DNA of 64,000 nucleotides from Candidatus Algichlamydia australiensis (GCA_033977065.1 JAXCHI010000004.1:256001-320000); one strand, 5' to 3'. Shown: positions 97 to 43,045, counted from the first letter of the stretch. A program made the numbers and translations. The notes: generated from the letters alone by a model not told the origin.

Positions 97-258
97 TGAG
101 ACTATTCTACTATTCATATTTTCAATTTTTCCATATTTTTGGCCCATTTTTTCCTCAATTTTTTCGGCCAACTTTTCAAAGTTTCCCTCAAAAATTGAGA
201 AAAAAAGAGCAGAAAACTATAAAAAAATTTAGAAAACAGCAATAGCAGGATAGTCTCA
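97..258. repeat. 162-bp imperfect palindrome (MITE/RPE-like element P1)
   Basis: Ends TGAGACTATTCTACTATT / AATAGCAGGATAGTCTCA pair; arms pair imperfectly throughout; apex AACTT-TTCA-AAGTT near 177; abuts ATG at 259. Confidence 0.8.
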
Positions 259-1605
259 ATGAAACTCAAGACCTATTTAAAGAAAGATTTGCACCTCATC
301 ACACAAATCTTTCGCGACCACATGGTCATCCTGTTGCTTATTTTACTCTCTTATATTGCAACATACGCCTTAAATCTCTATCTGGCAAATTTGCTCAAAC
401 CAGAGCTTTATGGAAATATTTCTATTGTTTTCCAATTGCTTCTATTTACGATGCCGTTTGCGCTGTTGGGAACCGAGCTTTCTATGATGCACTTTTTGCC
501 CAAGTATTTCCACGATCATGAATATCCGCTTGCTTCAGGATTTATCCGATGGAATTTTCGTCTTTTTGGTTGGATCTCTCTTGTTGTTTTGGCTTTGGGA
601 GGGATGTGTCTCTCTATTGCTCTGATTTTAGAGGGGATTGGTGTCACCAAGTTAACAGAGTATAATGTGATTCTTTACTCGTTTTGGCTGATTCCACTTT
701 TTGCTTTAATTGTTTTGCTTGCAACTCTCCTGCAAACGATGGGCAAATTTTACTTAGCGACCTCTTTTCGCGGATTTGCACTCTCTTTTATGATCTTGCT
801 TGTGGTTTTTTTATTCCTCCATGTTTTTGAGACTTCATGGGTTGGGGGCTATCGCAAAACGGTTAGCTTGATTATCTGCTTGGCAATTGCCTACCTATCT
901 ATTATTGGTCTTGAGATCTATTTCTTGCGCAAGACGCTACCAAAAAAGATCTATAAGGTAAAACCGCACTACCAGAAGAGCCACTGGGTGCGCTACTCGA
1001 TCGAAATGTTAGGAAGTTTTTTGGGGTATACAGCTTTAGCGGCACTTGAAATTTTGCTTTTACAATTTTTTGGAGCAAACCAAGAAGATGTCGGGCACTT
1101 TGCCTCTATTTTGGTGATTAGCTCTTCCATGATGGTGCTTGCTTTAGCAGTTGATATGTTTGTGAATCCGCTCATTAGCTCGCTCGTGCATAAAAATCGT
1201 CTGCACTTGCAGTCGGTTTTGGATATTGTCAATCTCTTCAAACTTGTTCCTGCAACGCTTCTGCTTCTCGTTATGATTTTCTTTGGAGAGTCGCTGCTTT
1301 CACACTTTGGAAAGTCATTTGAAGGCGCTTACCCAGCACTCTTAGTTTTGGCAGCTGGTTATTTTTATGGCCTAACACTCAATTCTGCAGTGCCTCTTCT
1401 ACTCTACTCCGGGCATCATCGGCTCAATTTTAAGCTCTCTCTTGTACAATTTGCGTTTATTGTGATTGCGAGCGGAATTTTGATTCCCATGTACGCCTTA
1501 GAGGGAGCTGCCATCGCCCTTTCCGCAACAATTGTCTTTGCAAGCACGATGCGACTCTTCTTCATCCGCAAATATTTAGATATCAAATTGCTATTTATTG
1601 TATAG
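259..1605 (+). CDS. Polysaccharide flippase / MOP-superfamily (Wzx-like) membrane protein
   Basis: 448 aa with many hydrophobic segments; 'LANLLKPELYG' N-terminal motif and 'LIPMYALEGAAIA' C-terminal motif are typical of Wzx-like exporters. Confidence 0.75.
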   Translation: MKLKTYLKKDLHLITQIFRDHMVILLLILLSYIATYALNLYLANLLKPELYGNISIVFQLLLFTMPFALLGTELSMMHFLPKYFHDHEYPLASGFIRWNFRLFGWISLVVLALGGMCLSIALILEGIGVTKLTEYNVILYSFWLIPLFALIVLLATLLQTMGKFYLATSFRGFALSFMILLVVFLFLHVFETSWVGGYRKTVSLIICLAIAYLSIIGLEIYFLRKTLPKKIYKVKPHYQKSHWVRYSIEMLGSFLGYTALAALEILLLQFFGANQEDVGHFASILVISSSMMVLALAVDMFVNPLISSLVHKNRLHLQSVLDIVNLFKLVPATLLLLVMIFFGESLLSHFGKSFEGAYPALLVLAAGYFYGLTLNSAVPLLLYSGHHRLNFKLSLVQFAFIVIASGILIPMYALEGAAIALSATIVFASTMRLFFIRKYLDIKLLFIV

Positions 1606-1711
1606 CATTTGCAATTCATGACTTGCACGAAATACGCATCTTTGTGGTTGTATGCTTTTGACGACGCTATCTAAAACCCCGAAATCAGCGAATGAATTCC
1701 TCATGAGCCGC

Positions 1712-1878
1712 TAGTACTCTGTAACAGAAAATTTTAGCATTATTTTTACGTCAAAGCCTCGGGATTGAACTATCGAAAATCACCTCGTATTTGATTAATA
1801 CTAGGTGACTTGCGATAGCCCAATCGCGAGAGCTTTCACGTTAAAAAGAATAACAAAATTTTCTGTTACAGAGTACTA
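1712..1878. repeat. 163-bp imperfect palindrome flanked by TA on both sides (element P2)
   Basis: CTAGTACTCTGTAACAGAAAATTTT (1711) pairs perfectly with AAAATTTTCTGTTACAGAGTACTAG (to 1879); internal arms also pair; apex GTATT-TGATT-AATAC. Confidence 0.9.
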
Positions 1879-2042
1879 GGCGGGCAATGGAAGCCTGCTT
1901 TACTGGTAGCAGGGAATTTAGAATTTCAAGAAGGAGTTTTTGGAAACCGGAGATAACTGCAAGCAGTTATTGGAGGTTGAAAAAGCTCTTTATTGGAATT
2001 ATGAAACCCTGGGATCGGTAAATGAGGGTTTCATTGCCCGCC
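1879..2042. repeat. 164-bp imperfect palindrome (element P3), adjacent to P2 and overlapping the stop codon of 2031..2759
   Basis: GGCGGGCAATG ... CATTGCCCGCC termini; arms pair imperfectly; apex ATAACTGC-AA-GCAGTTAT. Confidence 0.85.
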
Positions 2043-2759
2043 AAAAAAAACCTTGAAAGGAGAGAGAAGAATATTGGTTGCCTGTCCCGATATGCCTATC
2101 ACCATGTTGGTGACCCCTTCCATAAGGGTGATCTGCTCCAGTAGCTTTTTAATAATGACTTCAGTGATCTCTTCAATCGGCAAGCCTTTCTCTGTTCCGA
2201 CGTTTTGGAATTCCATTTTAGGGATAGGATTGAGTTTACGTGGATTTCTCTCACCACTGAGGAGGATATCAACGTTGACGTTGTAAAGACCAAGGAGCTC
2301 AATTAAGACGGTTCGGTTGTAGCGGAAGCTAGTCTTATCCACTACTTCTTCAATTGGGTTTGTTGTTGAGAAGTTGCTATCAACATTTTGAACGATCTGG
2401 GTCCAGTTTCCCTGAGAATTATCTTTGTCGTTAAACTCAATACCTGCCCAGATGTTTTCAAAGGCAATTCTTTGGATATCAATGTCTTTTTTAAAGTAGT
2501 TGATTAGGGGGGCGTCAAAGGTGATTTTTCCCACTTCCATTGCTTTATCCATTTTATACCCCTTGGGGTTGTGGACAACGAGCTGGTTAATGGTAAAGGA
2601 ATCCCAGTGAAGATCTATGCTTTTGATAGTCGTGTGGACGCCAAGTTTTTCAGAGAGGTAGTTGGCTAAGATTTCAGCGCGGTGAAAGTAGAAGTGACCA
2701 AGAAAGGCAGCAAATCCTACGACAAGAACAATCGCTAAAAAGCATATAATTTTCTTCAT
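2031..2759 (-). CDS. Conserved hypothetical protein with N-terminal membrane anchor (AsmA/DUF748-like)
   Basis: N-terminal TM segment followed by a beta-rich domain ('INQLVVHNPKGY'); lies downstream of groEL as in other chlamydiae. Confidence 0.55.
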   Translation of the reverse strand: MKKIICFLAIVLVVGFAAFLGHFYFHRAEILANYLSEKLGVHTTIKSIDLHWDSFTINQLVVHNPKGYKMDKAMEVGKITFDAPLINYFKKDIDIQRIAFENIWAGIEFNDKDNSQGNWTQIVQNVDSNFSTTNPIEEVVDKTSFRYNRTVLIELLGLYNVNVDILLSGERNPRKLNPIPKMEFQNVGTEKGLPIEEITEVIIKKLLEQITLMEGVTNMVIGISGQATNILLSPFKVFFGGQ

Positions 2760-2770
2760 TTCCTCACGTT

Positions 2771-2808
2771 AAAGAAAAAAGGCTTTTCCCGAAAGGGAAA
2801 AGCCTTTT
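2771..2808 (-). terminator. Rho-independent terminator of groESL
   Basis: AAAAGGCTTTTCCC-GAAA-GGGAAAAGCCTTTT stem-loop followed by a U-tract on the minus strand. Confidence 0.85.
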
Positions 2809-2831
2809 GCTTGTGTAGGATTGAGATGACT

Positions 2832-4791
<1,960 letters not shown>

Positions 4792-4823
4792 ATTTCTTTC
4801 CTTGTAAAAGTTTATACAACCCC

Positions 4824-4852
4824 ATTATGACGGAAAAGTGAATTTTTGGCAA
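4824..4852 (-). promoter_or_regulatory. Sigma66/70-type promoter of groESL
   Basis: TTGCCA-17 bp-CATAAT on the minus strand upstream of groES. Confidence 0.7.
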
Positions 4853-4857
4853 CAAAT

Positions 4858-4884
4858 TTAGCAGTTTAAGGTGCTAAGTGCTAG
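4858..4884. promoter_or_regulatory. CIRCE element (HrcA operator)
   Basis: TTAGCAGTT-N9-AAGTGCTAG versus consensus TTAGCACTC-N9-GAGTGCTAA, just upstream of the groESL -35. Confidence 0.9.
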
Positions 4885-4952
4885 GTGTGTAAAATCAAAA
4901 TTTTAATTTTTATATATTGACTGTTTCGCTCGAATTGCATACTCTGAAGCGC

Positions 4953-6719
4953 ATGGTTATAGAACGTCATGAAGTTAAAAAAGAAGATAAGTGGGATGTA
5001 GAGGCTCTCTACGCATCCATTTCAGACTGGGAAAGTGAATTCAAAGCGATATCTGACAAAGGTTGGGGGAAGATCCTTCAATACAAGGGGAAACTTGGTG
5101 AAAATTTGGGCGCAGCACTTAGAGAGCGCTTTTCTCTTGATGAGACCATAGACAAACTTGTTGTTTACGGCCACTTGCGCTACGATGAAGATCTTACAAA
5201 TGCCGAGCACAAGTCCACCTACGATAGGGCAATGAGCCTCTATTTTGATTTCTCTGCTAATGTAAGTTGGTTTGAACCCGAAATTTTACAGCTTCCAGAT
5301 GAAGTTATAGAGAGTGCATTGAACGATAACTCTCTTTCTGATTACCACTTTTTCCTCTCTTCATTAATCAAGTTAAAACCGCACACTCTTTCTCCCAAAG
5401 AGGAGAAGATTTTAGCTCTATCAGCTGAATCGATGCAGACAGCAAAGCGCACTTTTTCTCTTCTCAATAATGCGGATTTCAAATTTGCTCCAGCAAAAGA
5501 TGAAAATGGAGAGGAGCATGAGATTACTCACGCGCGCTACTCTACGATTTTACACAGTAAGGATCGCACACTACGCATCAATGCCTTTGAAAATTTGCAA
5601 GGGCGTTATCGTGAGTATGGCAATACGATTGCAGAGCTACTAGCTGGACATGTAAACACGCATATTTGTGAGGCAAAAGCGCGAGGATACAAATCTTCTT
5701 TGGATGCAGCCCTTTTTCCTAAAAATATAGATACGGAAGTTTATCGCCAATTGATCAAAACTGCGCATGAGAATATTGAGCCTTTGCACCGCTATATGGC
5801 GATGCGTAAGGAAAAACTTGGTTTGGACAAACTGCGCCTTTGCGATCTCTATGTTCCTCTTGTTGATGAGGTGGATCTGCATTACACCTATGATGAGTCA
5901 ATTGATATGGTGGTCGACTCATTAAAGTGCTTGGGACCAGAATACCAGAGACAGCTAAAAGCGGGTCTAACAACAGATCGTTGGGTGGATCGTTATGAGA
6001 ATGAAGGGAAACGCTCTGGGGCCTATTCAAGTGGCTGCTATGGCTATATGCCCTACATTTTGATGAATTACCAGGGACAGATTAATGATGTGATGACACT
6101 TACGCATGAAGCGGGTCACAGCATGCACTCATTCTACTCTCAAAAAAATCAGCCCTATCCGAAGGCGCAGTATACAATTTTTGTGGCAGAAGTAGCATCA
6201 ACTTTTCATGAGAAACTTCTTTTCCACTATTTGATGGAGAGATTGGGAGAAAAAGAGAAGCAGTTCCTTATAAATTACCGCTTAGATAGTATTCGTGCAA
6301 CGTTTTTCAGGCAGGCTCTCTTTGCTGAATTTGAATTAAAAATTCACGAGCTGGCTGAAGCGGGGAAGCCTCTGACACAAGAGCTTTTAAGCGAGATTTA
6401 TGGCGAATTAAACCGCGTCTACTACGGTCCTCACTTAGAAATTGATGAGTATTTAAAAGCAGAGTGGATGCGCATTCCGCATTTCTACAGTAACTTTTAC
6501 GTTTACCAGTATGCAACGGGAATTAGTGCGGCAACAGCTCTTGTAGATCGCGTGACAAAAGAGGGAGCAAAAGAGGACTATTTGCGTTTTATCTCCTCTG
6601 GAGGAAGCGATTATCCATTGAATGAGCTTCGCGATGCTGGTATTGACATGACAGATGAAAAACCGATAAAATCCTTGATTGCAGATTTTGAGGAGTTGCT
6701 CGATGCGTTTAGGAATTAA
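4953..6719 (+). CDS. pepF: Oligoendopeptidase F
   Basis: HEAGHSMH zinc motif, KRSGAYS, AEVAS, W-x-RIPHFY; divergent from groES as in Chlamydia. ATG 4953 preferred over TTG 4917. Confidence 0.96.
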   Translation: MVIERHEVKKEDKWDVEALYASISDWESEFKAISDKGWGKILQYKGKLGENLGAALRERFSLDETIDKLVVYGHLRYDEDLTNAEHKSTYDRAMSLYFDFSANVSWFEPEILQLPDEVIESALNDNSLSDYHFFLSSLIKLKPHTLSPKEEKILALSAESMQTAKRTFSLLNNADFKFAPAKDENGEEHEITHARYSTILHSKDRTLRINAFENLQGRYREYGNTIAELLAGHVNTHICEAKARGYKSSLDAALFPKNIDTEVYRQLIKTAHENIEPLHRYMAMRKEKLGLDKLRLCDLYVPLVDEVDLHYTYDESIDMVVDSLKCLGPEYQRQLKAGLTTDRWVDRYENEGKRSGAYSSGCYGYMPYILMNYQGQINDVMTLTHEAGHSMHSFYSQKNQPYPKAQYTIFVAEVASTFHEKLLFHYLMERLGEKEKQFLINYRLDSIRATFFRQALFAEFELKIHELAEAGKPLTQELLSEIYGELNRVYYGPHLEIDEYLKAEWMRIPHFYSNFYVYQYATGISAATALVDRVTKEGAKEDYLRFISSGGSDYPLNELRDAGIDMTDEKPIKSLIADFEELLDAFRN

Positions 6720-7485
6720 ATTTTTTCTACTGCTTCCTCTCGTTTTATTTGGTAAAGTAATTGAGGTGCAGCATTTCAAAGAGCTTCTTACACACATTTC
6801 AAAGGATACTCTTATTCTACTTGATATAGATGACACTCTGCTGATACCAAAACAGATGCTGGGCTCAGATATATGGTTTAACTACCGTTGGCGAGAGTAT
6901 CAAAAAATGGGAATGAGCCGTGGAGATGCTTTAGAAAAAAGTTTAGCCGAGTGGAATGCGATCCGTCATCTAACAGAGATGGAGATTGTAGAACCTGGGA
7001 CAAAGGAGATCATCAGCCAAATGCAAGATGAGGGGTATACAGTCATGGGGTTGACAACCCAGGGAATCGCAATGGCTACGCGCACCTCAATGCAACTAAA
7101 AGATCTTGGGATTCACCTGGTACGCACTGCGCCTTCAAAAAATGGGCACTACCTTAACATCAACGAGCACGGAGTTCTCTTCCGTGAAGGAGTCCTTTTT
7201 ACTTCAGGAACCCCTAAAGGAAAGGCTCTTTTTGCGCTTTTATACACGCTCGGTTATTACCCCAAAGAAATCGTTTTTATTAATGACAAGTTAGCTCATT
7301 TGCACGATATAGAAGAGGAGGCAGAAAAAAATAAGATCAAATATTGCGGTTTGCGTTATGCTTACTCTGACGCGCGTAAGAAGGCATTTCGGGTAGATGT
7401 AGCAGATTACCAGTTTTGCCACTCAACATTTGATAGAATTTGTTCCGATGAGGAAGGAACAATTGCGACGAATAAATCATTATGA
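6703..7485 (+). CDS. Secreted HAD-like protein (DUF2608-type)
   Basis: Signal peptide, DIDDTL HAD motif I, K-G-x-x-L and FIND motifs. Confidence 0.7.
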   Translation: MRLGIKFFLLLPLVLFGKVIEVQHFKELLTHISKDTLILLDIDDTLLIPKQMLGSDIWFNYRWREYQKMGMSRGDALEKSLAEWNAIRHLTEMEIVEPGTKEIISQMQDEGYTVMGLTTQGIAMATRTSMQLKDLGIHLVRTAPSKNGHYLNINEHGVLFREGVLFTSGTPKGKALFALLYTLGYYPKEIVFINDKLAHLHDIEEEAEKNKIKYCGLRYAYSDARKKAFRVDVADYQFCHSTFDRICSDEEGTIATNKSL

Positions 7486-15091: not shown

Positions 15092-16063
15092 ATGTTAACT
15101 CATGAGAAGCAGATCAAGGAGTGCGAAGAAGCACTTGAGCGATTAAGAGAGCAGAACAACGCCTCAGATGTCTGGACAGATGAGGAAATTGTGCGTCTAG
15201 AATCACGTCTTGAAAAGCTAAAGGCAAAAGTCTACTCACAACTCTCTCCTTGGGAACGCGTCACGATTTCTCGCCACCCGGAGCGCCCACAAGCTAAAGA
15301 TTATATTAGTCATATCGTAGAAGGTTTTGAAGAGCTTCATGGAGATCGCCTCTTTCGCGATGATCCCGCAATCGTCATGGGCATTGGGCGTATTGGTGGG
15401 GAAAAATTTATGGTAATTGGTCAGGAAAAGGGGAAAGATACTGAAAGTCGTCTTCATCGAAATTTTGGTATGCCGCACCCGGAAGGGTATCGGAAGGCGC
15501 TTCGCGCAATGCAGCTTGCTGAAAAATTTAACATTCCTGTTCTCTGTTTTATTGATACCCCAGGAGCTTATCCAGGTCTCGCTGCTGAAGAGCGCGGTCA
15601 GGGATGGGCAATTGCAAAAAATTTAATGGAGATGGCGCACCTAAAAACCCCTGTGATCGCTGTTCTCATAGGCGAGGGTTGCTCTGGTGGCGCACTTGGG
15701 ATTGGAATTGCGGATCGTGTTGCCATGTTAGAGCACGCTTACTATTCCGTAATTTCTCCCGAAGGATGTGCCTCAATCCTCTGGAAAGATAGCACAAAAC
15801 AGGCTCAAGCAGCAGAGTGTTTGAAGCTCACCTCTGATGATTTAGCAGAGTATAAAATTGTTGATCATATTATCGATGAGCCTCTTGGTGGTGCCCACTA
15901 TGACCCACAAGTTGTCTATAAGGCTGTAAAAGAGTATGTCACCCGTGAAAATGCAACCCTAAAACAACTTCCTCTTGAGACTCTTCTCAAGGAAAGGTAC
16001 AATAAGTTTCGTCAACTAGGTAAAACTGACCACGATGAAACTTCTTTTAAAGGCAGCTCTTAG
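15092..16063 (+). CDS. accA: Acetyl-CoA carboxylase carboxyltransferase alpha subunit
   Basis: RNFGMPHPEGYRKA, IDTPGAYPG, GEGCSGGALG, ISPEGCASILW. Confidence 0.98.
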   Translation: MLTHEKQIKECEEALERLREQNNASDVWTDEEIVRLESRLEKLKAKVYSQLSPWERVTISRHPERPQAKDYISHIVEGFEELHGDRLFRDDPAIVMGIGRIGGEKFMVIGQEKGKDTESRLHRNFGMPHPEGYRKALRAMQLAEKFNIPVLCFIDTPGAYPGLAAEERGQGWAIAKNLMEMAHLKTPVIAVLIGEGCSGGALGIGIADRVAMLEHAYYSVISPEGCASILWKDSTKQAQAAECLKLTSDDLAEYKIVDHIIDEPLGGAHYDPQVVYKAVKEYVTRENATLKQLPLETLLKERYNKFRQLGKTDHDETSFKGSS

Positions 16064-17954
16064 AACAAAACGCCATTTCGGAATTGTACTTCTTAACTTA
16101 GTTTTTTGCTTAGGGCTCCTCGTCGCCAGCCAGATGGAACTCTTCGGTTTTGGCCTCATTACACGCACAGATATCGATTTTTTTAAACTCTTTGGTGATG
16201 GAAACAAAGTAACCGAGCAGCAGATTGAAAAAAAGTGGCCTAAAATCGCTGAAGATGGCGTAATCACTCGAAGAAGGGCTTCTGCCTATCTACTCAAGCG
16301 CAAACAAGAGCGCAATCCTCTCACACAGATTATGATCAAAGCGCACAACTACTTCGAAAACTTTTCGCGCATCGAGTTACTAATTGGGCTTTTAGTGGGG
16401 ATTGCAATTTTCAAAGCGCTAATGCTTTTTTTCTCGCGCTACGTGTCGCAAGTACTCTCTATCCGCATATCGAAAGATTTGCGGCAGCAATATTTTGAAC
16501 ACATTCAAAAGTTGCCTTTAAGTTTTTATCAGAAATTTAATATCGGCGCTCTTTCTGCTCGCGTGGGAGGGGACGCCTCGCAAATCGCGCTCTCTCTTAA
16601 TTCAGCAATTACGAACTATTTTCAAACACCTTTTACCATCCTCTCTGCCCTCTCTGTCTGCCTCTACATCTCATGGCGCCTCTCGCTTGTTATTTTTATC
16701 GGCCTGCCACTGATCGTTCTTCCTGTTGTATTTGTTACGCGCAAAGTGAAGCAGATCACCCGTCGTTGGCAGAAGCACCAGGAGCGCTTCTCCTCTGTGC
16801 TCATCGACTTTCTCTCTGGAATCAAAACGGTAAAAATCTTTTCAATGGAAAAATTTTCCATGAAAAAATATGAAGAGCAGAACAATGAGATGGCGCGTTT
16901 AGAGACAAAGACGGCAAAGTATGATCTGCTCACGCGACCGATTCTCCATACCATTACCATGATCTGTTTAGGGGGGGTAATCTTCTACGGCCTCTATATT
17001 TTGAAGATGAATATCTCCGAGCTCCTTATCTACTGTGGCATGTTGCACCTCTTTTACGAACCGGTGAAAAAGTTTGCAGAGGAGAATACCAACATTCAAA
17101 AGGGAGTTGTCGCAGCAGAGCGTCTCTTTGAGGTCCTCAATATGAAGGTTACGACCTCCTCTGAAGAGCAGCAGAAAGAGGAGCTCACAGCTTTTAATGA
17201 AAAGTTGGAATTTGAAAACGTCTGGTTTCGTTATGACGATCGCTGGATTCTCAAGGACCTCTCCTTTACCATTCATAAAGGTGAAACAGTTGCCATTATT
17301 GGCGCAACGGGAGCGGGTAAGTCGACCATTGTTGAGCTTATCCCTCGCCTTCATGAGGTTCAAAAAGGGGAGATTCGCATTGATGGTAAACCTCTAAGTG
17401 CCTACTCTCAAAAATCCATTCGCAAACAGATCGCTTTTGTCTCACAAAAGCCTTTCCTCTTCTTTGATTCGATTAAGACAAACATTTCTTACGGCAAAAC
17501 TCTTCCGGAAGAAGAGGTGAGAGAAGCAGCAAAGAGAGCCTATGCAGATGAGTTTATTGAGAAGCTCCCGCAAGGTTATCTTACTCATCTGGCAGAAACA
17601 GGAAAAAATCTCTCTGGTGGCCAGCAGCAGCGCCTTGCTATTGCGCGCGCGCTTGCTAAAAAAGCGCCTATCCTCATTCTAGATGAGGCAACAAGCGCAC
17701 TAGACAGCCTCTCTGAGCAGCGCATCCAGCAAGCGATTGAAGATTTGCACGGAGAGCATACGCAAATCATCATCGCACACCGTCTCACAACGATCGAGCA
17801 TGCAGATCGTATTATTTTCTTAGAAGATGGGACAAAGATTGCGGAAGGAACAAAAGATGAGCTGCTCGCTTCTTGCACTCCCTTCCGTCTCATGTGGGAG
17901 ACACATTTTTTAAAGGAAACACTGAACAAGCCAGACTTTTCGAAAAAATTCTGA
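16035..17954 (+). CDS. msbA: Lipid A flippase-type ABC transporter (MsbA-like)
   Basis: TM domain plus NBD: GATGAGKS, LSGGQQQR, ILILDEATSALD; follows accA as in Chlamydia. Confidence 0.85.
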   Translation: MKLLLKAALRTKRHFGIVLLNLVFCLGLLVASQMELFGFGLITRTDIDFFKLFGDGNKVTEQQIEKKWPKIAEDGVITRRRASAYLLKRKQERNPLTQIMIKAHNYFENFSRIELLIGLLVGIAIFKALMLFFSRYVSQVLSIRISKDLRQQYFEHIQKLPLSFYQKFNIGALSARVGGDASQIALSLNSAITNYFQTPFTILSALSVCLYISWRLSLVIFIGLPLIVLPVVFVTRKVKQITRRWQKHQERFSSVLIDFLSGIKTVKIFSMEKFSMKKYEEQNNEMARLETKTAKYDLLTRPILHTITMICLGGVIFYGLYILKMNISELLIYCGMLHLFYEPVKKFAEENTNIQKGVVAAERLFEVLNMKVTTSSEEQQKEELTAFNEKLEFENVWFRYDDRWILKDLSFTIHKGETVAIIGATGAGKSTIVELIPRLHEVQKGEIRIDGKPLSAYSQKSIRKQIAFVSQKPFLFFDSIKTNISYGKTLPEEEVREAAKRAYADEFIEKLPQGYLTHLAETGKNLSGGQQQRLAIARALAKKAPILILDEATSALDSLSEQRIQQAIEDLHGEHTQIIIAHRLTTIEHADRIIFLEDGTKIAEGTKDELLASCTPFRLMWETHFLKETLNKPDFSKKF

Positions 17955-18076
17955 AAATTGGCCCAAATCGGTTTTTCGAACTCGAAAACTCTTATGGAGT
18001 TACCTCTGTTCTCCAAAACCAATTTTGTCTCAATTTTTAAAATATTTTTGAAAAGAGCACTTGTTCAGTGTTTCCT
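17914..18076. repeat. 163-bp imperfect palindrome (element P4) overlapping the msbA 3' end
   Basis: 17-bp perfect terminal IR AGGAAACACTGAACAAG / CTTGTTCAGTGTTTCCT; arms pair imperfectly; apex AACTC-TTATG-GAGTT. Confidence 0.88.
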
Positions 18077-36059: not shown

Positions 36060-36196
36060 AAATCCCTCTTTCCATATGAGGAGAAAGGAGGTAACAACTT
36101 AATTTTTAAAATCTGAGTGCAAGCCGTGCTTGAGTTTTTTTAGGTAGTTTTTTTAATAGAATCCTGATAAAATCATTTGCTAGACAGGAGAATACC

Positions 36197-37282: not shown

Positions 37283-37300
37283 AGTTTTGCTACTCATTTT

Positions 37301-37378
37301 TTAGAGATTGCTGAAGACGAAGCTGAAAAGCTAAAGATCGTTGACGATGTAGTGATCTTCATTAAATAAAAAATGTAA
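37301..37378 (+). pseudogene. Degenerate duplicate of the acpP 3' end
   Basis: Translates as LEIAEDEAEKLKIVDDVVIFIK*, versus Acp[23 protein letters not shown] (34408-34488). Confidence 0.85.
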
Positions 37379-37475
37379 ACTTATTATTTAAATCTGGAAA
37401 AAGCAATTTTTAGGAGGGTATTTCTTGTTTTTTTAGTATTGTCTTGATATAATATTAATATATTTAAAATTATAT

Positions 37476-38390
37476 ATGATTGATTCAATAAGTTTGGTAA
37501 AAAATTATTTAATTCGTTGGATTCCTTCTCCTACCACACATCTAACATGTGCGGTATTTAAAAAAGTGGCAGAAACATCACCACTAATAATTAATGGTTG
37601 CATCTCCTGTAAAAGCTTAGATAGTAAAAAATTTACTTTTTCACTCTTTTCTACTCTTGTTTCGCCTCTATTTTACTGCAATAACAGCTATGCAAAAGGG
37701 TTTATTCTCCTGCTGACGGTAACGAATCTACTGTTTCATAATTTTTTTACAGGTAGCCAAGCAAAAACAAATTTTGTCTCTAAACCTGCGGTTCCTAAAA
37801 AAAATGAGGGGATAGGACAGGCCGGTGTAGATCAAATAGGCACTGTTGGGGTAGTCAGACTTTCTCGATCAGAAACGAATTCTGTCTCTAAACCCGCGAT
37901 CCTTGAAAAAAATGAGGGGACAGATAAAAATTCAGAACCAAATAAGGGGATAGGACAGGCAGATCCAAAAGATCTTTTCTCTGAGAGTGAGAAAGAAATT
38001 TTGAAACAGATTGATCCGTCACGTTTTGAACAATTTTTTAATGGTGAAATCACCGAGGCTGAGAAGCAAGTAGTTTTCGATTTTAATAGAAAAACAAATA
38101 ATGCTTTATTCAATCGATTTTTAGTTCAACTTTTCAAGTATAGAGATGGGTATCCCTACCAAAATAGTTTCAGCTCAGAGTCAGAACTTCCTACTAATTT
38201 AGATAGTTTGATCTGTTCATACGATCACGACAAATTTGCCACAGAAGAAGAGCGAAAAAGAATCTTTAGCAATACAAGATCCTTTGTAGAGAAATTTATT
38301 CACACTCGACTCAAAGGGCTGGATGACTACGAAGAAGTTATTGCTCAATCAGTAGAGAATGCTGATTGGATGGAACAGCTAATTAAGTGA
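37476..38390 (+). CDS. Hypothetical Inc-like protein, paralogue 3 of 3 (different C-terminal domain)
   Basis: KKVAETSPLIING...FSLFSTLVS...LLTVTNLL; internal repeat TN[F/S]VSKPA...KNEG...GIGQA. Confidence 0.65.
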   Translation: MIDSISLVKNYLIRWIPSPTTHLTCAVFKKVAETSPLIINGCISCKSLDSKKFTFSLFSTLVSPLFYCNNSYAKGFILLLTVTNLLFHNFFTGSQAKTNFVSKPAVPKKNEGIGQAGVDQIGTVGVVRLSRSETNSVSKPAILEKNEGTDKNSEPNKGIGQADPKDLFSESEKEILKQIDPSRFEQFFNGEITEAEKQVVFDFNRKTNNALFNRFLVQLFKYRDGYPYQNSFSSESELPTNLDSLICSYDHDKFATEEERKRIFSNTRSFVEKFIHTRLKGLDDYEEVIAQSVENADWMEQLIK

Positions 38391-38917
38391 TCATTGACAA
38401 GGCCAACAGCCTGCATAAATGAGTAAATTATAGTGGGTCCAACAAAGGCCATACCGCGCTTCTGTAAATCTTTTGCTATCGCAGTGCTAATGTCTGTTTT
38501 GCAAGGGACATCTTGAGAGTTTTTCCACTTATTGACAATAGGTTTATAGTCGACATACTTCCATAGATAAGAATCAAATGAGCCAAACTCTTTCTGAATT
38601 TTAAGAAAAATTTGTGCGTTTTGGCGAGCACTAAAGATCTTTCGTCTATTGCGAATAATTGCAGGATTTAAGATGAGGTTCTCAAGATCTTGATCAGACA
38701 TTTTTGCTACAGTTTCTGGATCAAAGTTATGAAAGTGTTTCCGGTAAGCTTCTCGTCTTTTCAGTATGAGTTCCCAGTTTAAACCTGCTTGAGCGCCTTC
38801 TAAAACTAGCATTTCAAAAAGGTGTCTGTCATCGTGAACAGGGATACCCCACTCTTCATCGTGGTACTTGGCGTACAATTCTTTTCCGGGGCCATCCCCA
38901 AAGCATCGTTTTTTCAT
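38345..38917 (-). CDS. tag: DNA-3-methyladenine glycosylase I
   Basis: YHDEEWG, LEGAQAGLNW, IIRNRRKI, GLVNDH...C. Confidence 0.96.
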   Translation of the reverse strand: MKKRCFGDGPGKELYAKYHDEEWGIPVHDDRHLFEMLVLEGAQAGLNWELILKRREAYRKHFHNFDPETVAKMSDQDLENLILNPAIIRNRRKIFSARQNAQIFLKIQKEFGSFDSYLWKYVDYKPIVNKWKNSQDVPCKTDISTAIAKDLQKRGMAFVGPTIIYSFMQAVGLVNDHLISCSIQSAFSTD

Positions 38918-39969
38918 CCTTTAACTTCTATCCAGAGTTTACGGCTCTCTTCTTCAGGCATAAGGTTTTGTATAAAGTGGAATTTTTTCCCATTCCGTTT
39001 GTCAAGCTCACTCATCAACCAGTGGTAGCGATCAGAGAACTCTAAGTCCTCAACGATCGTCTCTGTAGGCGGAAGGTTACACCACGTGTTGCACTGATTG
39101 ATGAGATTCTCTTTTTCATAAAGATGGTTTATGAAAGCGTAGGTAAGCTCTTCCTTGTCACTTTTTTGTGGTAAGGCAAGACTCTCTATTGAGGTAAAGA
39201 TGGGACCTTCAGGAAGGACAAAGTCGACATGGGGAGCATCTTTTTCCATACGCCAAAGGTAGTAGTGTTGGGCAAGGGCAAGAGAGCAGTTGCGTGTTGC
39301 TAGGAGATAGTCGGCTCGCACTTCTACGTAAGCCTCCACAAACTCTTTTTGCGAGAGAAGAACTTCTTTGACTTCGGCTATTTGGTGCGGAGTCAGAGAT
39401 TTTACTGGCCCATAGAGGTAGAAGGCGGCAAAATTAATCGCTTCGATGGGATCGTTGAGCATTACAATTCGCTTCTCGGAGTTAAAAATTTGGTCGTAGG
39501 TAAGGTGGGGCAGTGGAAGATCTTCTTTGTTAATTCCAAAACCGTAGACAACCCATTGAAGGGGAATGGAGTAGTTGTTTTCTGGGTCAAAGGCGTGTCC
39601 AAGAAGGCGAGGATTGAGGCTTTTATAAAAAGAGAGTTTACTGCGGTCAATTTCTTTGAGTAAACCCTCTTTTTTTAGAAGCGGTATTGCGTAGTCAGAC
39701 GGGATAATCAGGTCAAAACCTCTTCCTTTTGTCGCCTTCATTTTCGTGAGCATCTCTTCGTTCGAGCCATAGCAGTGAAGACGCACCTTTGCATGATACT
39801 TTTCTTCAAAGGAGTGAATGGTTCGTTCATCGATAGAGTCAGCCCAGCCAAAGATGTGTAGGGTGTTGCTACTATCCCCTTTAAAAAGGAGGATCTTGGG
39901 CCATGAGAGGAGGAGAAAGGAGGCGGCTACCCAGGCAGTGATGGAGAAAAATTTATAAAAACCGCGCAT
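38914..39969 (-). CDS. potD: Spermidine/putrescine ABC transporter substrate-binding protein
   Basis: SNEEMLTKM, FDLIIPSDY, DPENNYSIP; operon context. Confidence 0.88.
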   Translation of the reverse strand: MRGFYKFFSITAWVAASFLLLSWPKILLFKGDSSNTLHIFGWADSIDERTIHSFEEKYHAKVRLHCYGSNEEMLTKMKATKGRGFDLIIPSDYAIPLLKKEGLLKEIDRSKLSFYKSLNPRLLGHAFDPENNYSIPLQWVVYGFGINKEDLPLPHLTYDQIFNSEKRIVMLNDPIEAINFAAFYLYGPVKSLTPHQIAEVKEVLLSQKEFVEAYVEVRADYLLATRNCSLALAQHYYLWRMEKDAPHVDFVLPEGPIFTSIESLALPQKSDKEELTYAFINHLYEKENLINQCNTWCNLPPTETIVEDLEFSDRYHWLMSELDKRNGKKFHFIQNLMPEEESRKLWIEVKG

Positions 39970-40745
39970 CAGTAGATCCTCGTTCGTATTTTTGGAGAGA
40001 AGAAGAGAAGCACAAGGAGGGAACTAAGAAGCAGCAGAAGGGTAGAGAGGGCGTTTACAACGGGTGAGATGCCTTGGCGGATCATACTGAGAAGATAGAG
40101 AGAGAGCGTTTGTATAGAATTACCAGCACAAAAATAGGAGAGGATAAAGTCATCGAATGAGATGACAAAGACAAGCAGTCCAGTAGCGATAAGAGAGGGA
40201 CGTAAAAGGGGTAAAGTAATTTTGAAAAAGGTTGTCCAAGGAGTAGCACCGAGATCAAGTGAAGCCTCTTTTAGCTTGGGATCAAGATCGCTATAGCGAG
40301 TGTAGAGGATGGGGATAGCAAAGCCGAGTCCTAAGATTGTATGAGAGACGATGAGTGTGGGCATGCCGAAAGGGATATCAAGCAGAGAGAAGTAGCTAAG
40401 GAGACTAACAGCAAGAACGGTCTCTGGAACGATGAGTGAGCCAAAAAAGAGGGGGAGAAGGCGTCTCCCTTTCTTACTCCCACTATCCAAAAAATAGATC
40501 AGCAGTGTGCTTAAAAAAAGACTTAAAAGAGTGGTGATACTAGCAATTTTTAGAGAATTAAAAAATGATTCCCAAAGGTCGTAGGAGCGGAAAAGTTCAC
40601 GGTACCAGTTCAGTGTAAAGCCGTGCCAAGGTGCTGGAAAAGTTTTTGTGTTAAATGAGAAGGCCACAAGCACCAAGATAGGGAGATAGAGGAAGAGAAA
40701 TGTTCCGAAAACATGGAGTTTGTGAAGCGCCTTTTTCCTGATCAT
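39969..40745 (-). CDS. potC: Polyamine ABC permease
   Basis: FLYLPI...SFN, EASLDLGA, SFDDF. Confidence 0.9.
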   Translation of the reverse strand: MIRKKALHKLHVFGTFLFLYLPILVLVAFSFNTKTFPAPWHGFTLNWYRELFRSYDLWESFFNSLKIASITTLLSLFLSTLLIYFLDSGSKKGRRLLPLFFGSLIVPETVLAVSLLSYFSLLDIPFGMPTLIVSHTILGLGFAIPILYTRYSDLDPKLKEASLDLGATPWTTFFKITLPLLRPSLIATGLLVFVISFDDFILSYFCAGNSIQTLSLYLLSMIRQGISPVVNALSTLLLLLSSLLVLLFFSPKIRTRIY

Positions 40746-41599
40746 CGCAACCTCACAATAGTTTTATTGATTTTTTTAAAGAGGATATAAAATCCGCCAG
40801 AGAAGAGAAGAAGAATAATCGAGCTGACAACAGTGAAAGCAGCACCCATTCCTTCAGTATGTTCTCCTAGAATATATTGTGAGATGACGTTGCCAACAAA
40901 GTAAATGCGGTCGCCTCCCATAAGTTCAGGGATCACAAACTCACCAAAGGCAGGAATAAAGACGAGGAAAAAGCCGGTGCGGATGGCGGGAAGCGAGAGG
41001 GGAAGCATGATGCTGCGAAAAGTTTGTTGAGGGGTAGCGCCAAGGTCAAGGGAAGCTTCGATAAGTTTACTGTCGAAGCGCTCTAAGCTAGCGTAGATGG
41101 GAAGGACCATAAAGGGGAGATAGTAGTAAACCATCATGAGCATGGTTGCAAAAGGAGAGTTGAGCAGGTGAAGGGGTTCAGAAGTGATCCCCAAATTTAG
41201 TAAGAGGTTGTTGAGAAACCCTTGACGTTCAAGAACAAAAAACCAGGCGTAGATGTGAAGCAAAAAGTTGGTCCAAAAGGGAACAATCAACATGAAGAGA
41301 AGGAGGCTTTTGATTTTTTTGGCGTAGAAAGCCATATAGTGGGCAAGGGGATAGGCGATGATTAAAGAGATCCCGGCTGTTAGAGTGGCAATGCCAAGCG
41401 AGTTCCCAATAATTTTAAAATAGACAGGTGAGAGAACGGCAGAAAAATGGCTGAGAGTGAGCCCAGCAAAATAGCCTTCCCCAGATAAGCTCATAACACT
41501 AGAAAGAATCAAAAGAAAAAGAGGAATGTAGAAGAAAAGAATTTGCCAGATAAAGGCGCCTGAACCGAGGCCGAATGGAAGAGTGCTGCTTTTTTCCAT
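40742..41599 (-). CDS. potB: Polyamine ABC permease
   Basis: IVPFWTN, LPFMVLPIY, EASLDLGA. Confidence 0.9.
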   Translation of the reverse strand: MEKSSTLPFGLGSGAFIWQILFFYIPLFLLILSSVMSLSGEGYFAGLTLSHFSAVLSPVYFKIIGNSLGIATLTAGISLIIAYPLAHYMAFYAKKIKSLLLFMLIVPFWTNFLLHIYAWFFVLERQGFLNNLLLNLGITSEPLHLLNSPFATMLMMVYYYLPFMVLPIYASLERFDSKLIEASLDLGATPQQTFRSIMLPLSLPAIRTGFFLVFIPAFGEFVIPELMGGDRIYFVGNVISQYILGEHTEGMGAAFTVVSSIILLLFSGGFYILFKKINKTIVRLR

Positions 41600-41602
41600 G
41601 CC

Positions 41603-42697
41603 TCAATGCTCCAATAGTACGACATTTTCCCGTTGCCAGTAGAGGTAGACCTTATCGTCATAATCGATATCCTCATGCGGAAAATGCTCTTCATTCTGTT
41701 CAAAAACTTGCAGCATTGTACCGCTTCCAAGCTTCACGTTATACTGCGTTGATCTGCCGTAATAAACGATCGACTGCACACTGCCTTCAACTTGATTGGA
41801 AAAATCTTTTGCGGGCTTTTTAGAGATAAAGATTTTTTCTGGTCTCAGGCTCATCACTACGCTCCCTCCATTGGCCATCCAAGGTTTTTTCTGCGGTACA
41901 TAGACCTTTAAGCTACCGAGTCCCTCTACCTCAACTTCAGGGTCAAGCTCAATATTGCGCATAACCCCGTTTAAAATATTTGTTGTTCCAACAAATTTTG
42001 CAACAAATGAGGAGACGGGAAATTCATAAATCTCTTTTGGTGTACCAATCTGTTCGATTTCGCCATCAGAATTCATAATGGCCATCTGATCGGCTACAGT
42101 GAGCGCCTCAAACTGGTCATGGGTGACGTAGACAAAAGTTGTTTTGAGCTTGTCCTGCAGCTCGATTAACTCAACAAGCATCTTCTCGCGAAGTTTATAA
42201 TCGAGTGCTGCAAGCGGCTCATCGAGAAGAAGAACATCGGGCTCGTTGATGATGGCGCGACCAATCGCCACTCGCTGCTGCTGGCCTCCTGATAGCTCTG
42301 ATGGAAGTTTCTCTACCTGTTTTTCCAAGTGAAAAGCGCGCACAATACGCATCACTCTTTTTTGAATTTCATCCTTGGAAAGTCCCTGAATGACAAGGGA
42401 GTAGGCGATGTTGTCAAAGACGTTAAGGTGCGGGAATAAAGCATAATTTTGAAAAACAATATGAATACGACGTTTATTGATCGGAAGGTGTGTGATCTCC
42501 TTTTCTCCAATCGTAATCGTTCCGCTATCGACCTCCTCAAAGCCGCCAATGAGGCGCAAAAGCGTGGTCTTACCGCAGCCGCTTGGGCCGAGAAGAGCAA
42601 AAAATTTGCCAGAGGGGATAGTTAAGTGAATTTTTGAGAGGATCTTCCCGCTGTTGCCGTACGATTTTGTTACATTTTTCAAGTTAATGCTTCGCAT
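41603..42697 (-). CDS. potA: Polyamine ABC ATP-binding protein
   Basis: GPSGCGKT, VFQNYALFPHL, LSGGQQQR; TOBE-like C-terminus. Confidence 0.92.
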   Translation of the reverse strand: MRSINLKNVTKSYGNSGKILSKIHLTIPSGKFFALLGPSGCGKTTLLRLIGGFEEVDSGTITIGEKEITHLPINKRRIHIVFQNYALFPHLNVFDNIAYSLVIQGLSKDEIQKRVMRIVRAFHLEKQVEKLPSELSGGQQQRVAIGRAIINEPDVLLLDEPLAALDYKLREKMLVELIELQDKLKTTFVYVTHDQFEALTVADQMAIMNSDGEIEQIGTPKEIYEFPVSSFVAKFVGTTNILNGVMRNIELDPEVEVEGLGSLKVYVPQKKPWMANGGSVVMSLRPEKIFISKKPAKDFSNQVEGSVQSIVYYGRSTQYNVKLGSGTMLQVFEQNEEHFPHEDIDYDDKVYLYWQRENVVLLEH

Positions 42698-42881
42698 TCT
42701 GCTATTTTACTCTTTCAAGGCAATTTTCATAAACAGTAAATATTTTCTTACACGTTTAATATTTGTAAAATGTTTTATTTGTTTTTTAATCTATTAAGAT
42801 GGTTCGTTTTTTTGAAAAATATATAGGTTTCTATGTTAAAGACTGTCTTTGAATTAAATGCTCAAAGTTCATTCGTTGGCA

Positions 42882-43045
42882 ATGAACCTATCCAACTAAA
42901 CATGCTTTTGCCTTTTTCCAGATTTTTGGCTGGATTTTGAGCTATTTTTTCAAACAACTTAATTAAGTTGTTTTCAAAAAGATCCCAAAATCCTTCTCAA
43001 AACTGAGAAAAAATTTCAAAAGCAGCTTTAGTTGGATAGGTTCAT
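42882..43045. repeat. 164-bp imperfect palindrome (element P5)
   Basis: 19-bp perfect terminal IR ATGAACCTATCCAACTAAA / TTTAGTTGGATAGGTTCAT; apex AAACAACTT-AATT-AAGTTGTTT. Confidence 0.9.

Follow-up and report, generated by a model that had tools for sequence, protein, structure and literature searches.

Several kinds of bacterial repeat are close to the palindromes described here. IS5-type MITEs are bacterial elements with a eukaryotic counterpart in Tourist/PIF-Harbinger, and the IS5 branches typically duplicate TA or 2–3 bp, 9 bp, or 4 bp (TTAA/YTAR type) of target. Correia elements (CREE/NEMIS) are a single family in one genus, Neisseria, with conserved 26-bp ends. REPINs are shorter, need a RAYT (HUH Y1) gene and leave their targets unduplicated. 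Rickettsia palindromic elements (RPE) are not known to have clear terminal repeats, duplications or ends that match insertion sequences (IS), and each integron attC site stands alone next to a cassette and is recombined by IntI.

Five palindromes (P1–P5) were identified in the window, a 64-kb stretch of the 1.8-Mb genome of Candidatus Algichlamydia australiensis (assembly 93.4% complete). The elements are ordinary MITEs in kind; what is odd is that one length and one hairpin shape occur despite differing ends and target footprints. It is likely that P1–P5 are MITEs served by group-specific, trans-acting DDE transposases and built on an inherited hairpin chassis. The multicopy state, group-specific TIRs, target duplications, nesting and IS5-matching ends (families A, C/P1 and F/G) are observed directly. 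Two further element traces are present in the window, and no strand is assigned to any of these features:

97..258, P1: hairpin MITE of 162 bp, related to but diverged from family C (the family of P5)
1645..1673: right-end remnant of a family-A MITE, 29 nt, ending in ...TTTTGACGACGCTATC plus TA
1714..1876, P2: family-B MITE, 163 bp, TIR GTACTCTGTAACAG
1879..2042, P3: 164-bp hairpin element, single-copy
17915..18075, P4: family-F MITE, 161 bp, TIR GGAAACACTGAACAA
36058..36100: family E-like fragment, 43 nt, 81% identical to E consensus positions 117–156
42882..43045, P5: family-C MITE, 164 bp, between divergent genes

P1–P5 were folded as single-stranded DNA, each against 200 shuffles. All five form one end-to-end hairpin, as the first-pass annotation had claimed, and beat 200 of 200 shuffles, with energies of −29.0 (P1, z −6.8), −52.6 (P2, z −14.0), −40.7 (P3, z −8.8), −35.6 (P4, z −7.8) and −45.0 kcal/mol (P5, z −10.2). 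The lengths given in that annotation stand for P1, P2 (163 bp between TA dinucleotides, at 1712–1713 and 1877–1878), P3 and P5; P4 is better bounded at 17915–18075, 161 bp, where GGAAAC...GTTTCC has a perfect 4-bp TAAA duplication on both sides. The P5 core is 160 bp (42884–43043, GAACCTATCC...GGATAGGTTC) with AT duplicated on each side. No target duplication was seen for P1 or P3. Three of the palindromes touch genes: the 3′ limit of P1 is one base upstream of the ATG of an ORF (259–1605), the last 12 nt of P3 overlap the end of a minus-strand ORF (2031–2759), and the last 13 codons and stop of an ABC-transporter ORF (16035–17954) come from P4.

All five belong to repeat families of this genome. 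P2, which has a conserved inner core of ~95 nt, occurs in 14 full-length copies in the genome (95.7–100% identity), and P5 in 14 copies of at least 97.6% identity plus one at 76%. Across 161 nt, P4 shares 83.9% identity with the F consensus, and it has 22 other, diverged loci (70–83%); three further loci match P1 at 83–88%. The central ~60 nt of P3 match family G, of the P4 superfamily; the outer arms and ends are peculiar to P3, and its BLAST matches are only partial (26–130 nt). The remnant at 1645..1673 is a solo A terminus (C4:257671), 100% identical to A consensus positions 138–166.

A genome-wide scan by self-reverse-complement alignment identified 216 symmetric palindromes, 102 of them 160–179 bp long, with few outside this peak (2 at 125–139 bp, 4 at 180–189 bp). 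A shuffled control for contig C2 gave 2 raw hits versus 138 in the real sequence. The length constancy pointed out in the first-pass annotation is thus far from chance, and these counts are a floor because P4 itself falls below the scan threshold. At least 114 palindromes of 150–190 bp, with a sharp peak at 160–170 bp, make up 1.06% of the genome DNA. The AACT...AGTT apex, reported earlier for four of the five, is likewise a real shared feature: 41 of the 114 contain AACT-N4-9-AGTT within their middle 28 nt, whereas random 28-nt windows contain it in 0.25% of cases. A crude gene call places 100 of the 114 between ORFs, in 25 convergent, 26 divergent and 49 tandem spacers, and 14 share over 60 nt with an ORF. 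Also present in this genome is a palindrome class of ~101 bp.

The palindromes form at least six groups, each with its own termini:

Family A: 32 intact copies, 161 bp from TIR to TIR in 31 of 32, TA duplication
Family B (including P2): 14 copies, 163 bp in 14 of 14, TA
Family C (including P5; P1 is a relative): 15 copies, 164 bp from TIR to TIR in 15 of 15, with a 160-bp core and a 2-bp duplication
F/G (including P4, and P3 by its core): 10 intact copies, 161 bp in 9 of 10, 4-bp duplication
Family E: 8 intact copies, 161–162 bp in 8 of 8, probably a 5-bp duplication
Family D: 11 intact copies, 171 bp in 10 of 11, 9-bp duplication

These are small (160–171 bp), gene-less elements dispersed in many copies (8–32 intact copies per group), with TIRs conserved within each family; the F/G and C termini are kept in other genomes too. 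The 9-bp flanks of D are identical in 8 of 11 copies (0.7 in permuted pairs), the 2-bp flanks of C in 13 of 15 (7.8 permuted) and the 4-bp flanks of F/G in 5 of 10 (1.0 permuted). The duplication is weak for E (3 of 8 copies), and the B duplication is read from TA flanks (left 13 of 14, right 14 of 14) together with single TAs between abutting elements. Empty sites show target duplication for three families: a C copy within a D copy duplicated AT, a D copy within an A copy duplicated 9 bp, and an A copy within a B copy (C2:95703) duplicated TA, judged by its flanks against the B consensus. Both orientations occur (A 15/16, B 10/4, C 10/5). The duplications, nesting and multicopy state bear out the earlier proposal of a mobile element.

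Ends resembling those of IS5-family IS were found for three groups. The first 16 nt of A, including TA, flank a broken IS5-family gene (C2:415014–415815) that matches NF033580 at 1.7e-23 and 1.4e-36, and the A terminus also bounds intact-looking IS copies of ~837–857 bp on the Simkania plasmid pSn and at 7 of 30 loci in other chlamydiae. For C/P1 and F/G, the IS ends in other genomes are similar, not identical. An 878-bp IS in genome G140 has GAGCCTATCCTAATAAA, identical to the C terminus at 14 of 17 positions, with a 2-bp CT duplication; an IS5_4-type IS in G143 has GGAAGCTCTGGGAAATTC, is flanked by TTAA and shares 18 identical nt with an F/G-type MITE of G274. Only the 15–18 terminal bases are common to MITE and IS, after which similarity stops.

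No domain of seven Pfam transposase families was found in the 64-kb window, in agreement with the first-pass annotation. No intact transposase with matching ends occurs in the 93%-complete assembly, though copies of A, B and C are 97–100% identical, and the searches turned up no partner IS for B, D or E. The IS5_3-type gene is absent from four genomes that carry B-type elements. For the TA-flanked A elements, an IS630/Tc1-mariner origin was rejected: PF13358 (DDE_3) has 0 matches, and the A ends are those of an IS5-family IS. The TA-flanked B elements could be of either origin. The mariner family PF01359 has 0 matches in the genome, with a control that is positive nowhere. Y1_Tnp/HUH (PF01797) also has 0 matches in the 93.4%-complete genome, with a control positive in 6 of 14 genomes; a REPIN/RAYT system was rejected on this count and on the presence of duplications.

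The palindromes had been described as unrelated in sequence, which does not hold. A chain of significant similarities runs from C through P1, C3:97714, C2:156465 and C2:402235 to F, P3 and G (P1 to family C, z 19–21; F to P3, z 12–13; G to P3, z 23–28). It joins all four copies with the AACT apex, P1, P3, P4 and P5; P2 alone stands apart. Families A, B, D and E show no significant similarity to one another or to the AACT group except for a weak match of A to P1 (z 7–8), which may reflect shared T-tracts.

The arms are largely free in sequence, and length and hairpin are kept, as had been suggested. Compensatory changes were identified in 53 of 71 pairs in B-type elements (18 genomes) and in 37 of 49 pairs in F/G-type elements. 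Cells are paired in 92.2% of cases; shuffles give 69.7%, with 0 of 500 attaining the real value, and sliding gives 35–42%. Even within young family B, a compensatory A18T/T146A pair is present in 5–6 of 14 copies. G·T pairs do not outnumber A·C pairs (27 versus 32 in A1, 30 versus 48 in A2). This strictly Watson–Crick covariation, without G·T excess, argues against an RNA gene, and a structured RNA with strand-specific, G·U-tolerant pairing was rejected on this ground and because both orientations occur. Rfam 15 gave 0 matches in the window at gathering score, and seven family representatives gave only sub-threshold plant miRNA-precursor matches (best MIR1120, 43.9 bits versus a gathering score of 86). 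The ncRNA family entertained in the first-pass annotation is therefore not upheld.

Across the 18 genomes, B-type elements conserve the inner core, leave the outer ~35-nt arms free but paired, and keep only a short terminal motif (TA plus RTRC); the core occurs with at least three kinds of termini. Read by eye, 17 of 20 core sequences in the alignment keep a G·G mismatch, and 17 of 20 keep a one-base bulge. In F/G, the apex has CTCC on either side as an asymmetric direct repeat. The B core was found in ~51 of 399 other chlamydial genomes, at 72–84% identity across chlamydial families. The ~165-bp hairpin design also recurs in other chlamydial families: 400-kb samples of three other genomes contain 12, 9 and 8 palindromes of 160–171 bp, in five unrelated groups per genome. 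The F/G termini occur 170 times in G056, 157 times in G121 and 51 times in G220, and the pairs inspected span 164–165 nt from AAGGAG to CTCCTT, equal to 160–161 bp from GG to CC. Genome G205 has shorter palindrome families, of 121–127 bp.

The different termini and duplications (TA, 2, 4, ~5 and 9 bp) imply different transposases, not one shape-reading enzyme. Each group would have its own DDE transposase acting in trans by cut-and-paste, mostly from separate IS5-family branches, and each transposase would recognise only the outer ~15–25 bases. The body of the element would be a hairpin chassis passed down within old lineages and able to carry various IS ends; its arms may change in concert through selection on transposition-competent master copies or through arm-to-arm correction. 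Our best guess, from sequence comparison, is that the fixed length comes from common descent of a chassis that acquired new ends, so that ~161–164 bp would be mainly inherited and held by some stabilising constraint. Inheritance alone is not enough, because every off-size derivative that keeps both ends is single-copy (A 118 bp; B 19, 34, 46 and 109; F/G 97 and 99; E 54, 55 and 121; D 69 and 155). A strict length or hairpin requirement fits poorly, because a non-palindromic B-long element of 403–405 bp with the ends of P2 occurs in 11 copies. Thus, P2-type ends suffice for movement. The ~101-bp class and the 121–127-bp classes of G205 also strain a strict length requirement.

Convergence is a possible, clearly less likely explanation: unrelated MITEs would each have been driven to ~160–165 bp by a physical or host constraint. 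The two ends of so short an element could meet only through cruciform extrusion or a snap-back hairpin, or through the intrinsic bending of a loop, and arms of ~80 bp would be the size that works in chlamydial cells. One length is common to at least four duplication classes, off-size derivatives with both ends never amplified, and F and G are both 161 bp despite several indels between them in alignment. Phasing of T/A tracts at ~10–10.5 bp is seen (z 11.7 in A, 12.6 in C, 7.2 in F/G and 16 in P1, strongly so at ~10.5 bp), apexes are AT-rich, and pairing reaches the extreme ends and is extended by the TA/TTAA targets. Non-singleton variants of family A occur only at the single T·G mismatch of its TIR (of 31 copies, 7 have C·G there and 4 have T·A). 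However, B-long amplified with the same ends and without a palindrome, D is 171 bp, D and P3 lack phased tracts, the ~101-bp and 121–127-bp families exist, and master copies are only ~80% self-complementary. It is rather doubtful that an old, self-homogenising ~160–165-bp chassis takes successive IS ends and parasitises several transposases while a putative factor recognises the asymmetric cores (G·G mismatch and bulge in B, CTCC in F/G) on the extruded hairpin and sets the length in place of the transposases.

A single shared enzyme (HUH/RAYT-like, a tyrosine recombinase or similar) that reads a single-stranded DNA or RNA hairpin and measures from its apex, the mechanism favoured in the first-pass annotation, is very improbable. 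The kept B core with free yet paired arms, its mismatch and bulge, the CTCC repeat and the lack of an obvious partner transposase in most host genomes would suit it. Against it are duplication lengths that differ by group, group-conserved termini that match IS5-family ends, the mobility of B-long without a hairpin body and the absence from the 93%-complete genome of any Y1/HUH gene and of DDE_3 and DDE_Tnp_4. Least probable of all is that the hairpins are host RNA or DNA signals (two-way terminators, RNase III or protein-binding sites) with secondary spread: most are intergenic, P1, P3 and P4 abut or supply gene ends and the B core is conserved across chlamydial families, but duplications, nesting and near-identical bursts mark selfish mobile DNA, no Rfam family reaches gathering level, neither strand has a wobble excess, convergent, divergent and tandem spacers are used alike, and some elements overlap ORFs.

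The chlamydial elements resemble each known system in part. Like attC sites, they conserve fold rather than sequence and keep unpaired bases; unlike them, they are dispersed multicopy repeats with duplications, and the window has no visible integron context. RPE, as described, are also palindromic repeats (100–150 bp) of obligate intracellular bacteria, some within genes, whereas the chlamydial elements have terminal repeats, duplications and IS-matching ends. With REPIN/REP they share hairpins kept by compensatory change and a selfish, intergenic character, but they have duplications and reside in a genome without a Y1_Tnp gene. Correia elements, by their description, are similar: they have TA duplication and TIRs, measure ~150 bp apart from shorter deletion forms, lie between genes and have no identified resident transposase, and their transcripts form hairpins; the chlamydial families, in contrast, are many and phylum-wide, and share length and fold, not sequence. 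As in IS5-type MITEs, the elements are small, gene-less, multicopy and intergenic, their TIRs match IS5-family ends (A, C/P1 and F/G) and their target duplications are short, as in the IS5 branches. Unlike those MITEs, they share only 15–18 terminal bases with IS, each is a single hairpin over its entire body, one length is common to several groups whose duplications differ, and inner cores are better conserved than arms.

The five stretches singled out in the first-pass annotation are present in the sequence as it described them. As single-stranded DNA, all five fold into a single long, imperfect hairpin that spans the element from first to last base, and each scores better than all 200 of its dinucleotide-preserving shuffles (fold z below). 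The arms of P1, P2, P3 and P5 are among the 25 longest inverted repeats listed for the window by a repeat finder; those of P4 are not among these.

P1, 97-258: fold z -6.8; stops at the base preceding the first ATG of ORF 259-1605
P2, 1714-1876: fold z -14.0
P3, 1879-2042: fold z -8.8; overlaps the last 12 nt of ORF 2031-2759
P4, 17915-18075: fold z -7.8; positions 17915-17954 supply the final 13 codons, with the stop, of ABC-transporter ORF 16035-17954
P5, 42882-43045: fold z -10.2

The genes neighboring these palindromes are ordinary housekeeping genes. Given where P1 ends, the upstream region of ORF 259-1605 is element DNA.

The assembly of Ca. Algichlamydia australiensis (1,799,045 bp in seven contigs) was scanned by aligning every 320-bp window, at a step of 40, to its own reverse complement. 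At a score of at least 50 there were 520 raw hits genome-wide; contig C2 gave 138 in its real form and 2 after shuffling. Once asymmetric and overlapping hits were dropped, 216 palindromes were left, with 36 at 160-164 bp, 43 at 165-169 bp, 14 at 170-174 bp and 9 at 175-179 bp. The counts drop to 2 at 125-139 bp and 4 at 180-189 bp, and a minor second peak comprises 11 palindromes at 100-104 bp. The constant length noticed in five elements is thus borne out by a sharp genome-wide pile-up at 160-170 bp. Palindromes of 150-190 bp (n = 114) total 19,003 bp, or 1.06% of the genome. The scan counts are a floor, as P4 was missed. By a crude ORF call, 100 of the 114 elements are intergenic (25 in convergent, 26 in divergent and 49 in tandem spacers) and 14 overlap an ORF by more than 60 nt.

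Behind the small 100-bp peak is one repeat, itself palindromic (CGGSTCCWTCTCGCTGCGCCAAAT...ATTTTGCTTTGCGATAWGAACCCG, roughly 101-103 bp), which the genome has in about 12 copies, two of them at window positions 44873-44974 and 63396-63496. Its listed copies have a conserved non-palindromic tail (e.g., CTAGGCCGCT, TTAAGCCGCT, CTATGCCGCT) on the right side, or on the left in reversed copies. A 66-bp palindrome (TTGACTATTTTGCATGCTATTGCAAAATAGTCATGA...) at window positions 48922-48987 stands outside the assigned families; its spacer has additional short inverted repeats at 49025-49217.

The elements belong to a known kind, the MITEs. BLAST searches against the genome itself recovered 14 full-length copies of P2 (itself included, 95.7-100% identity), 14 copies of P5 at 97.6-100% and one at 76%, 22 other loci for P4 (70-83%, alignments of at least 100 nt), three further loci for P1 (83-88%) and partial matches only, of 26-130 nt, for P3. 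Clustering of 121 palindromes of 140-240 bp produced tight clusters of 33, 14, 13, 9, 7, 4, 4, 3 and 3 members and 31 singletons. The lengths of the groups, measured from terminal repeat to terminal repeat, are as follows.

Group A: terminus GATAGYGTCGTCAAAAGG; 161 bp in 31 of 32
Group B (includes P2): terminus GTACTCTGTAACAG; 163 bp in 14 of 14
Group C (includes P5): 164 bp in 15 of 15
Group D: terminus CTCTGTACTGGACAAAAATTTT; 171 bp in 10 of 11
Group E: terminus AACTCAAGTTGC; 161-162 bp in 8 of 8
Group F/G (includes P4): terminus GGAAACACTGAACAA; 161 bp in 9 of 10

Family consensuses and single elements were compared by local alignment with shuffled controls. P1 resembles C (z 19-21), P3 resembles G (z 23-28) and F (z 12-13), and F resembles G (z 15). 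The single-copy palindrome C3:97714 acts as a bridge, being similar to P1 (z 5.3), C2:156465 (z 25) and C2:402235 (z 8.9), and the latter two are in turn similar to F (z 5.7 and 8.0, respectively). These links place the four elements with an AACT...AGTT apex, P1, P3, P4 and P5, in one diversified lineage; the initial description of them as sequence-unrelated does not survive this chain of significant similarities. The enrichment of the apex itself does, being found in 41 of 114 palindromes compared with 0.25% of random windows. By group, the apex occurs in 14/14 C, 12/13 F, 9/9 G and 6/12 ungrouped elements, and in 0/66 of A, B, D and E combined. We detected no significant similarity of A, B, D and E to one another or to the AACT lineage, save a weak signal between A and P1 (z 7-8) that may come from common T-tracts.

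The groups transpose by different cuts. Group D copies have identical 9-bp sequences on both sides in 8 of 11 cases, where permuted pairs would give 0.7. In C, a 2-bp repeat (mostly AT, also AG and TT) lies directly outside a 160-bp core in 13 of 15 copies, and F/G copies have a 4-bp flanking repeat (TTAA, CTAA, TTAC, TAAA) in 5 of 10, with 1.0 expected. The TA flanks of A are present on the left in 31/32 and on the right in 32/32 copies, and those of B in 13/14 and 14/14. A 5-bp duplication of E is uncertain because only 3 of 8 copies show it. Empty sites, suggested at first pass as a check, are supplied by nested copies for C, D and A: a C copy lies within a D copy, with one AT in the D consensus and two when filled; a D copy lies within an A copy, with CGTCAAAAG on either side; and an A copy lies within a B copy at C2:95703, with TA on either side and a single TA in B. 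The single shared enzyme, reading shape, that was first proposed is made unlikely by flanking repeats that differ by group (TA, 2, 4 and 9 bp, and the uncertain 5 bp of E). Copies of A, B and C deviate from consensus almost solely by singletons, indicating that their bursts were recent.

Judged from their termini, several groups appear to attach to the IS5 family. The sole relic of an A-type partner in the assembly lies outside the window.

C2:415014-415815: broken transposase gene of the IS5 family (IS5_3-type), in two pieces with matches to NF033580 at 1.7e-23 and 1.4e-36

One side of this gene has TA followed by GATAGTGTCGTCAA, the family A terminus, and the other is truncated by a family-C copy. 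At the DNA level it shares 79% identity with a gene annotated as an IS5-family transposase on the Simkania negevensis plasmid pSn, where the element is 838 bp long with GATAGTGTCGTCAAA at both ends and CTAG on both sides. IS5_3-type genes were found in 85 of 400 other chlamydial genomes sampled, and 7 of 30 loci inspected for ends have an element of about 835-857 bp with an A-type terminus. An 878-bp IS5_3 element of genome G140 has the end GAGCCTATCCTAATAAA, identical to the C terminus at 14 of 17 positions, with a CT duplication; one in G152 has GAGACATTCTCTG, resembling the GAGACTATTCTAC of P1, with TTA on both sides. A search for IS5_4-type genes was positive in 34 of 370 other genomes. 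A copy in G143 has ends GGAAGCTCTGGGAAATTC beside TTAA, with 18 nt identical to an F/G-type MITE of G274, and one in G080 has GGAACCTCTGAAAAACTC, identical to the local F/G terminus at 14 of 18 positions. In each pair, similarity stops 15-17 bases in from the end; the MITE bodies are therefore not simple deletion derivatives of these IS copies.

The genome itself (93.4% complete) has no match to DDE_3, DDE_Tnp_1_2, Y1_Tnp or DDE_Tnp_4; the lack of Y1_Tnp counts against the HUH/RAYT candidate of the first-pass annotation. A mariner match was also lacking, and the mariner control matched nowhere. We identified one rve fragment and four DDE_Tnp_1 places, among the latter the broken gene at C2:415014-415815. 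Pairing of each family's termini up to 4 kb revealed no autonomous copies in this genome; the long pairs are elements interrupted by other elements. No partner for B, D or E was found among IS5_3 and IS5_4 loci of other genomes. The IS5_3 gene is absent from four genomes with B-type elements, and G220 has fragments only. A pattern search for B-type termini in five genomes returned no IS-sized pairs, and BLAST of P2, the F/G pair, P5 and family A against a plasmid collection gave no match. Two local candidates, a plasmid IS5_1-type element (C1) and an IS903-like element, were rejected as their ends are unlike those of every MITE family here.

C2:397645-398754 and C3:388891-390000: IS903-like (IS5_2-type) copies; 1110 bp, 99.8% identical, ends GGCCTTGTTGCGTAAATAGC, 9-bp duplication

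The reading frame of the IS903-like element contains stops, and its C3 copy is inserted in a family-A MITE.

A longer element shares the ends of B (46 nt left, 24 nt right).

C4:339773-340175 and 10 further places: B-long, 403-405 bp, 11 copies

B-long is not a full palindrome. In its chimeric body an A-like piece is joined to a GC-rich module between A8 and T7 runs. It follows from the 11 copies of B-long that the ends suffice for the transposase of B.

Sequences 72-84% identical to the inner part of P2 are present in about 51 of 399 other chlamydial genomes (our count, for hits in the B part of the query). The whole query matched 60 of 400 genomes, with two candidates scored per genome, and 0 of 29 genomes of the small-genome family f4. 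At all 18 loci surrounding B- or C-type matches the element is again a palindrome of 160-173 bp. Twenty B-type sequences from 18 genomes share a conserved core of about 95 nt, outside which the arms cannot be aligned but remain complementary; of the termini, only TA and RTRC are kept. Compensatory changes were found in 53 of 71 pairs, and one-sided changes number 0-3 per pair (0-1 in all pairs bar one). Cells are paired in 92.2% of cases compared with 69.7% in 500 shuffles, none of which reach the real value, and 35-42% when partners are shifted out of register. In the outer arms, covariation involves all 31 pairs; in the core, 12 of 29 pairs are invariant. Read by eye, the core alignment has a G·G mismatch in 17/20 and a bulged A in 17/20 sequences. 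The F/G-type (19 sequences, 7 genomes) shows compensation in 37 of 49 pairs, conserved termini and apex, and an asymmetric direct repeat, CTCC, flanking the apex. Within the present genome, family B has compensatory A18T and T146A in 5-6 of 14 copies, and in family A recurrent variants are confined to the one T·G mismatch within the terminal repeat, which they repair in both directions (7 and 4 of 31 copies). As the alignments were built from elements chosen as palindromes, the covariation shows that the arms change together and does not by itself show why.

Neither alignment has an excess of G·T over A·C pairs (27 vs. 32 and 30 vs. 48), so pairing is strand-symmetric, which fits DNA but not a single transcribed RNA. 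The hairpin thus appears to be maintained at the DNA level. The alternative that the elements are an ncRNA family finds neither a G·T excess nor an Rfam match at gathering level.

The body plan extends beyond this genome. Three further genomes have 170, 157 and 51 occurrences of the F/G termini (0-1 for a reversed control pattern), and in the pairs read the spacing is 164-165 nt from AAGGAG to CTCCTT, equivalent to 160-161 bp when measured GG to CC. Three other chlamydial families were sampled through the first 400 kb of one complete or near-complete genome each; these stretches hold 12, 9 and 8 palindromes of 160-171 bp. In each genome the palindromes form five groups with no BLAST similarity to one another, and C-type and F/G-type termini are among them. 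In G205:C1:1-400000 (loci L048-L067) there is also a palindromic repeat of 121-127 bp with 22 copies, which clusters with five 164-167-bp palindromes; its constant flanks indicate that it is part of a larger repeat unit. Contigs from public runs of samples X3, X4 and X5 include pieces that match P2, the P2/P3 junction or family A at 96-100% identity (query, window 1400-2400), indicating that this organism, a very close one, or the elements themselves are present elsewhere.

Our best guess for the common length is inheritance of a chassis together with a putative stabilizing constraint: an old palindromic chassis, the two arms of which evolve in concert, would take on new IS ends. Consistent with inheritance, the AACT lineage spans groups with 2-bp and 4-bp duplications, the B lineage has one core and several termini, P3 has a G core with unique outer arms, and MITE-IS similarity is limited to the terminal 15-18 bases. 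Common inheritance of A, B, D and E relative to each other is conjectural. That pure convergence under constraint sets the length seems unlikely to us. Every off-size derivative with both ends kept is single-copy, as convergence would have it, F and G hold 161 bp in spite of internal indels, and A, C, P1 and F/G have T/A tracts with a phase of about 10-10.5 bp, suggestive of bent DNA; however, D and P3 have no phased tracts, and a strict length rule is at odds with B-long, with the 171 bp of D and with the shorter palindrome classes. A helical-phase rule fails, as lengths of 161-164, 171, 404 and about 101 bp have no consistent phase.

We found no description of these elements in Rfam or in the literature searched on chlamydial MITEs and palindromic repeats, supplements aside. 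The available text of the genome description mentions 11 transposases, lacks "palindrom" and "MITE" and leaves the elements unannotated (PMC11317633); nor are they treated in the available portions of three other papers (PMC1590033, PMC3733652, PMC9769881). In practical terms, the elements make up about 1% of such genomes and lie at gene ends, providing stops and starts. If length and fold are needed for mobilization, they would offer a handle on how very short elements join their ends; if the chassis swaps ends, it would be a clear case of a non-coding parasite switching transposases. Two features are unusual: a phylum-wide body plan common to groups with different ends and footprints, and, in two groups, an inverted conservation in which the core has changed less than the arms. 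The usual definition of a MITE rests on its ends, its body being regarded as junk of arbitrary length. The chlamydial pattern is the reverse, in that a full-length imperfect hairpin of about 161-164 bp is kept despite differing ends and footprints, with arms that are exchangeable and co-vary.
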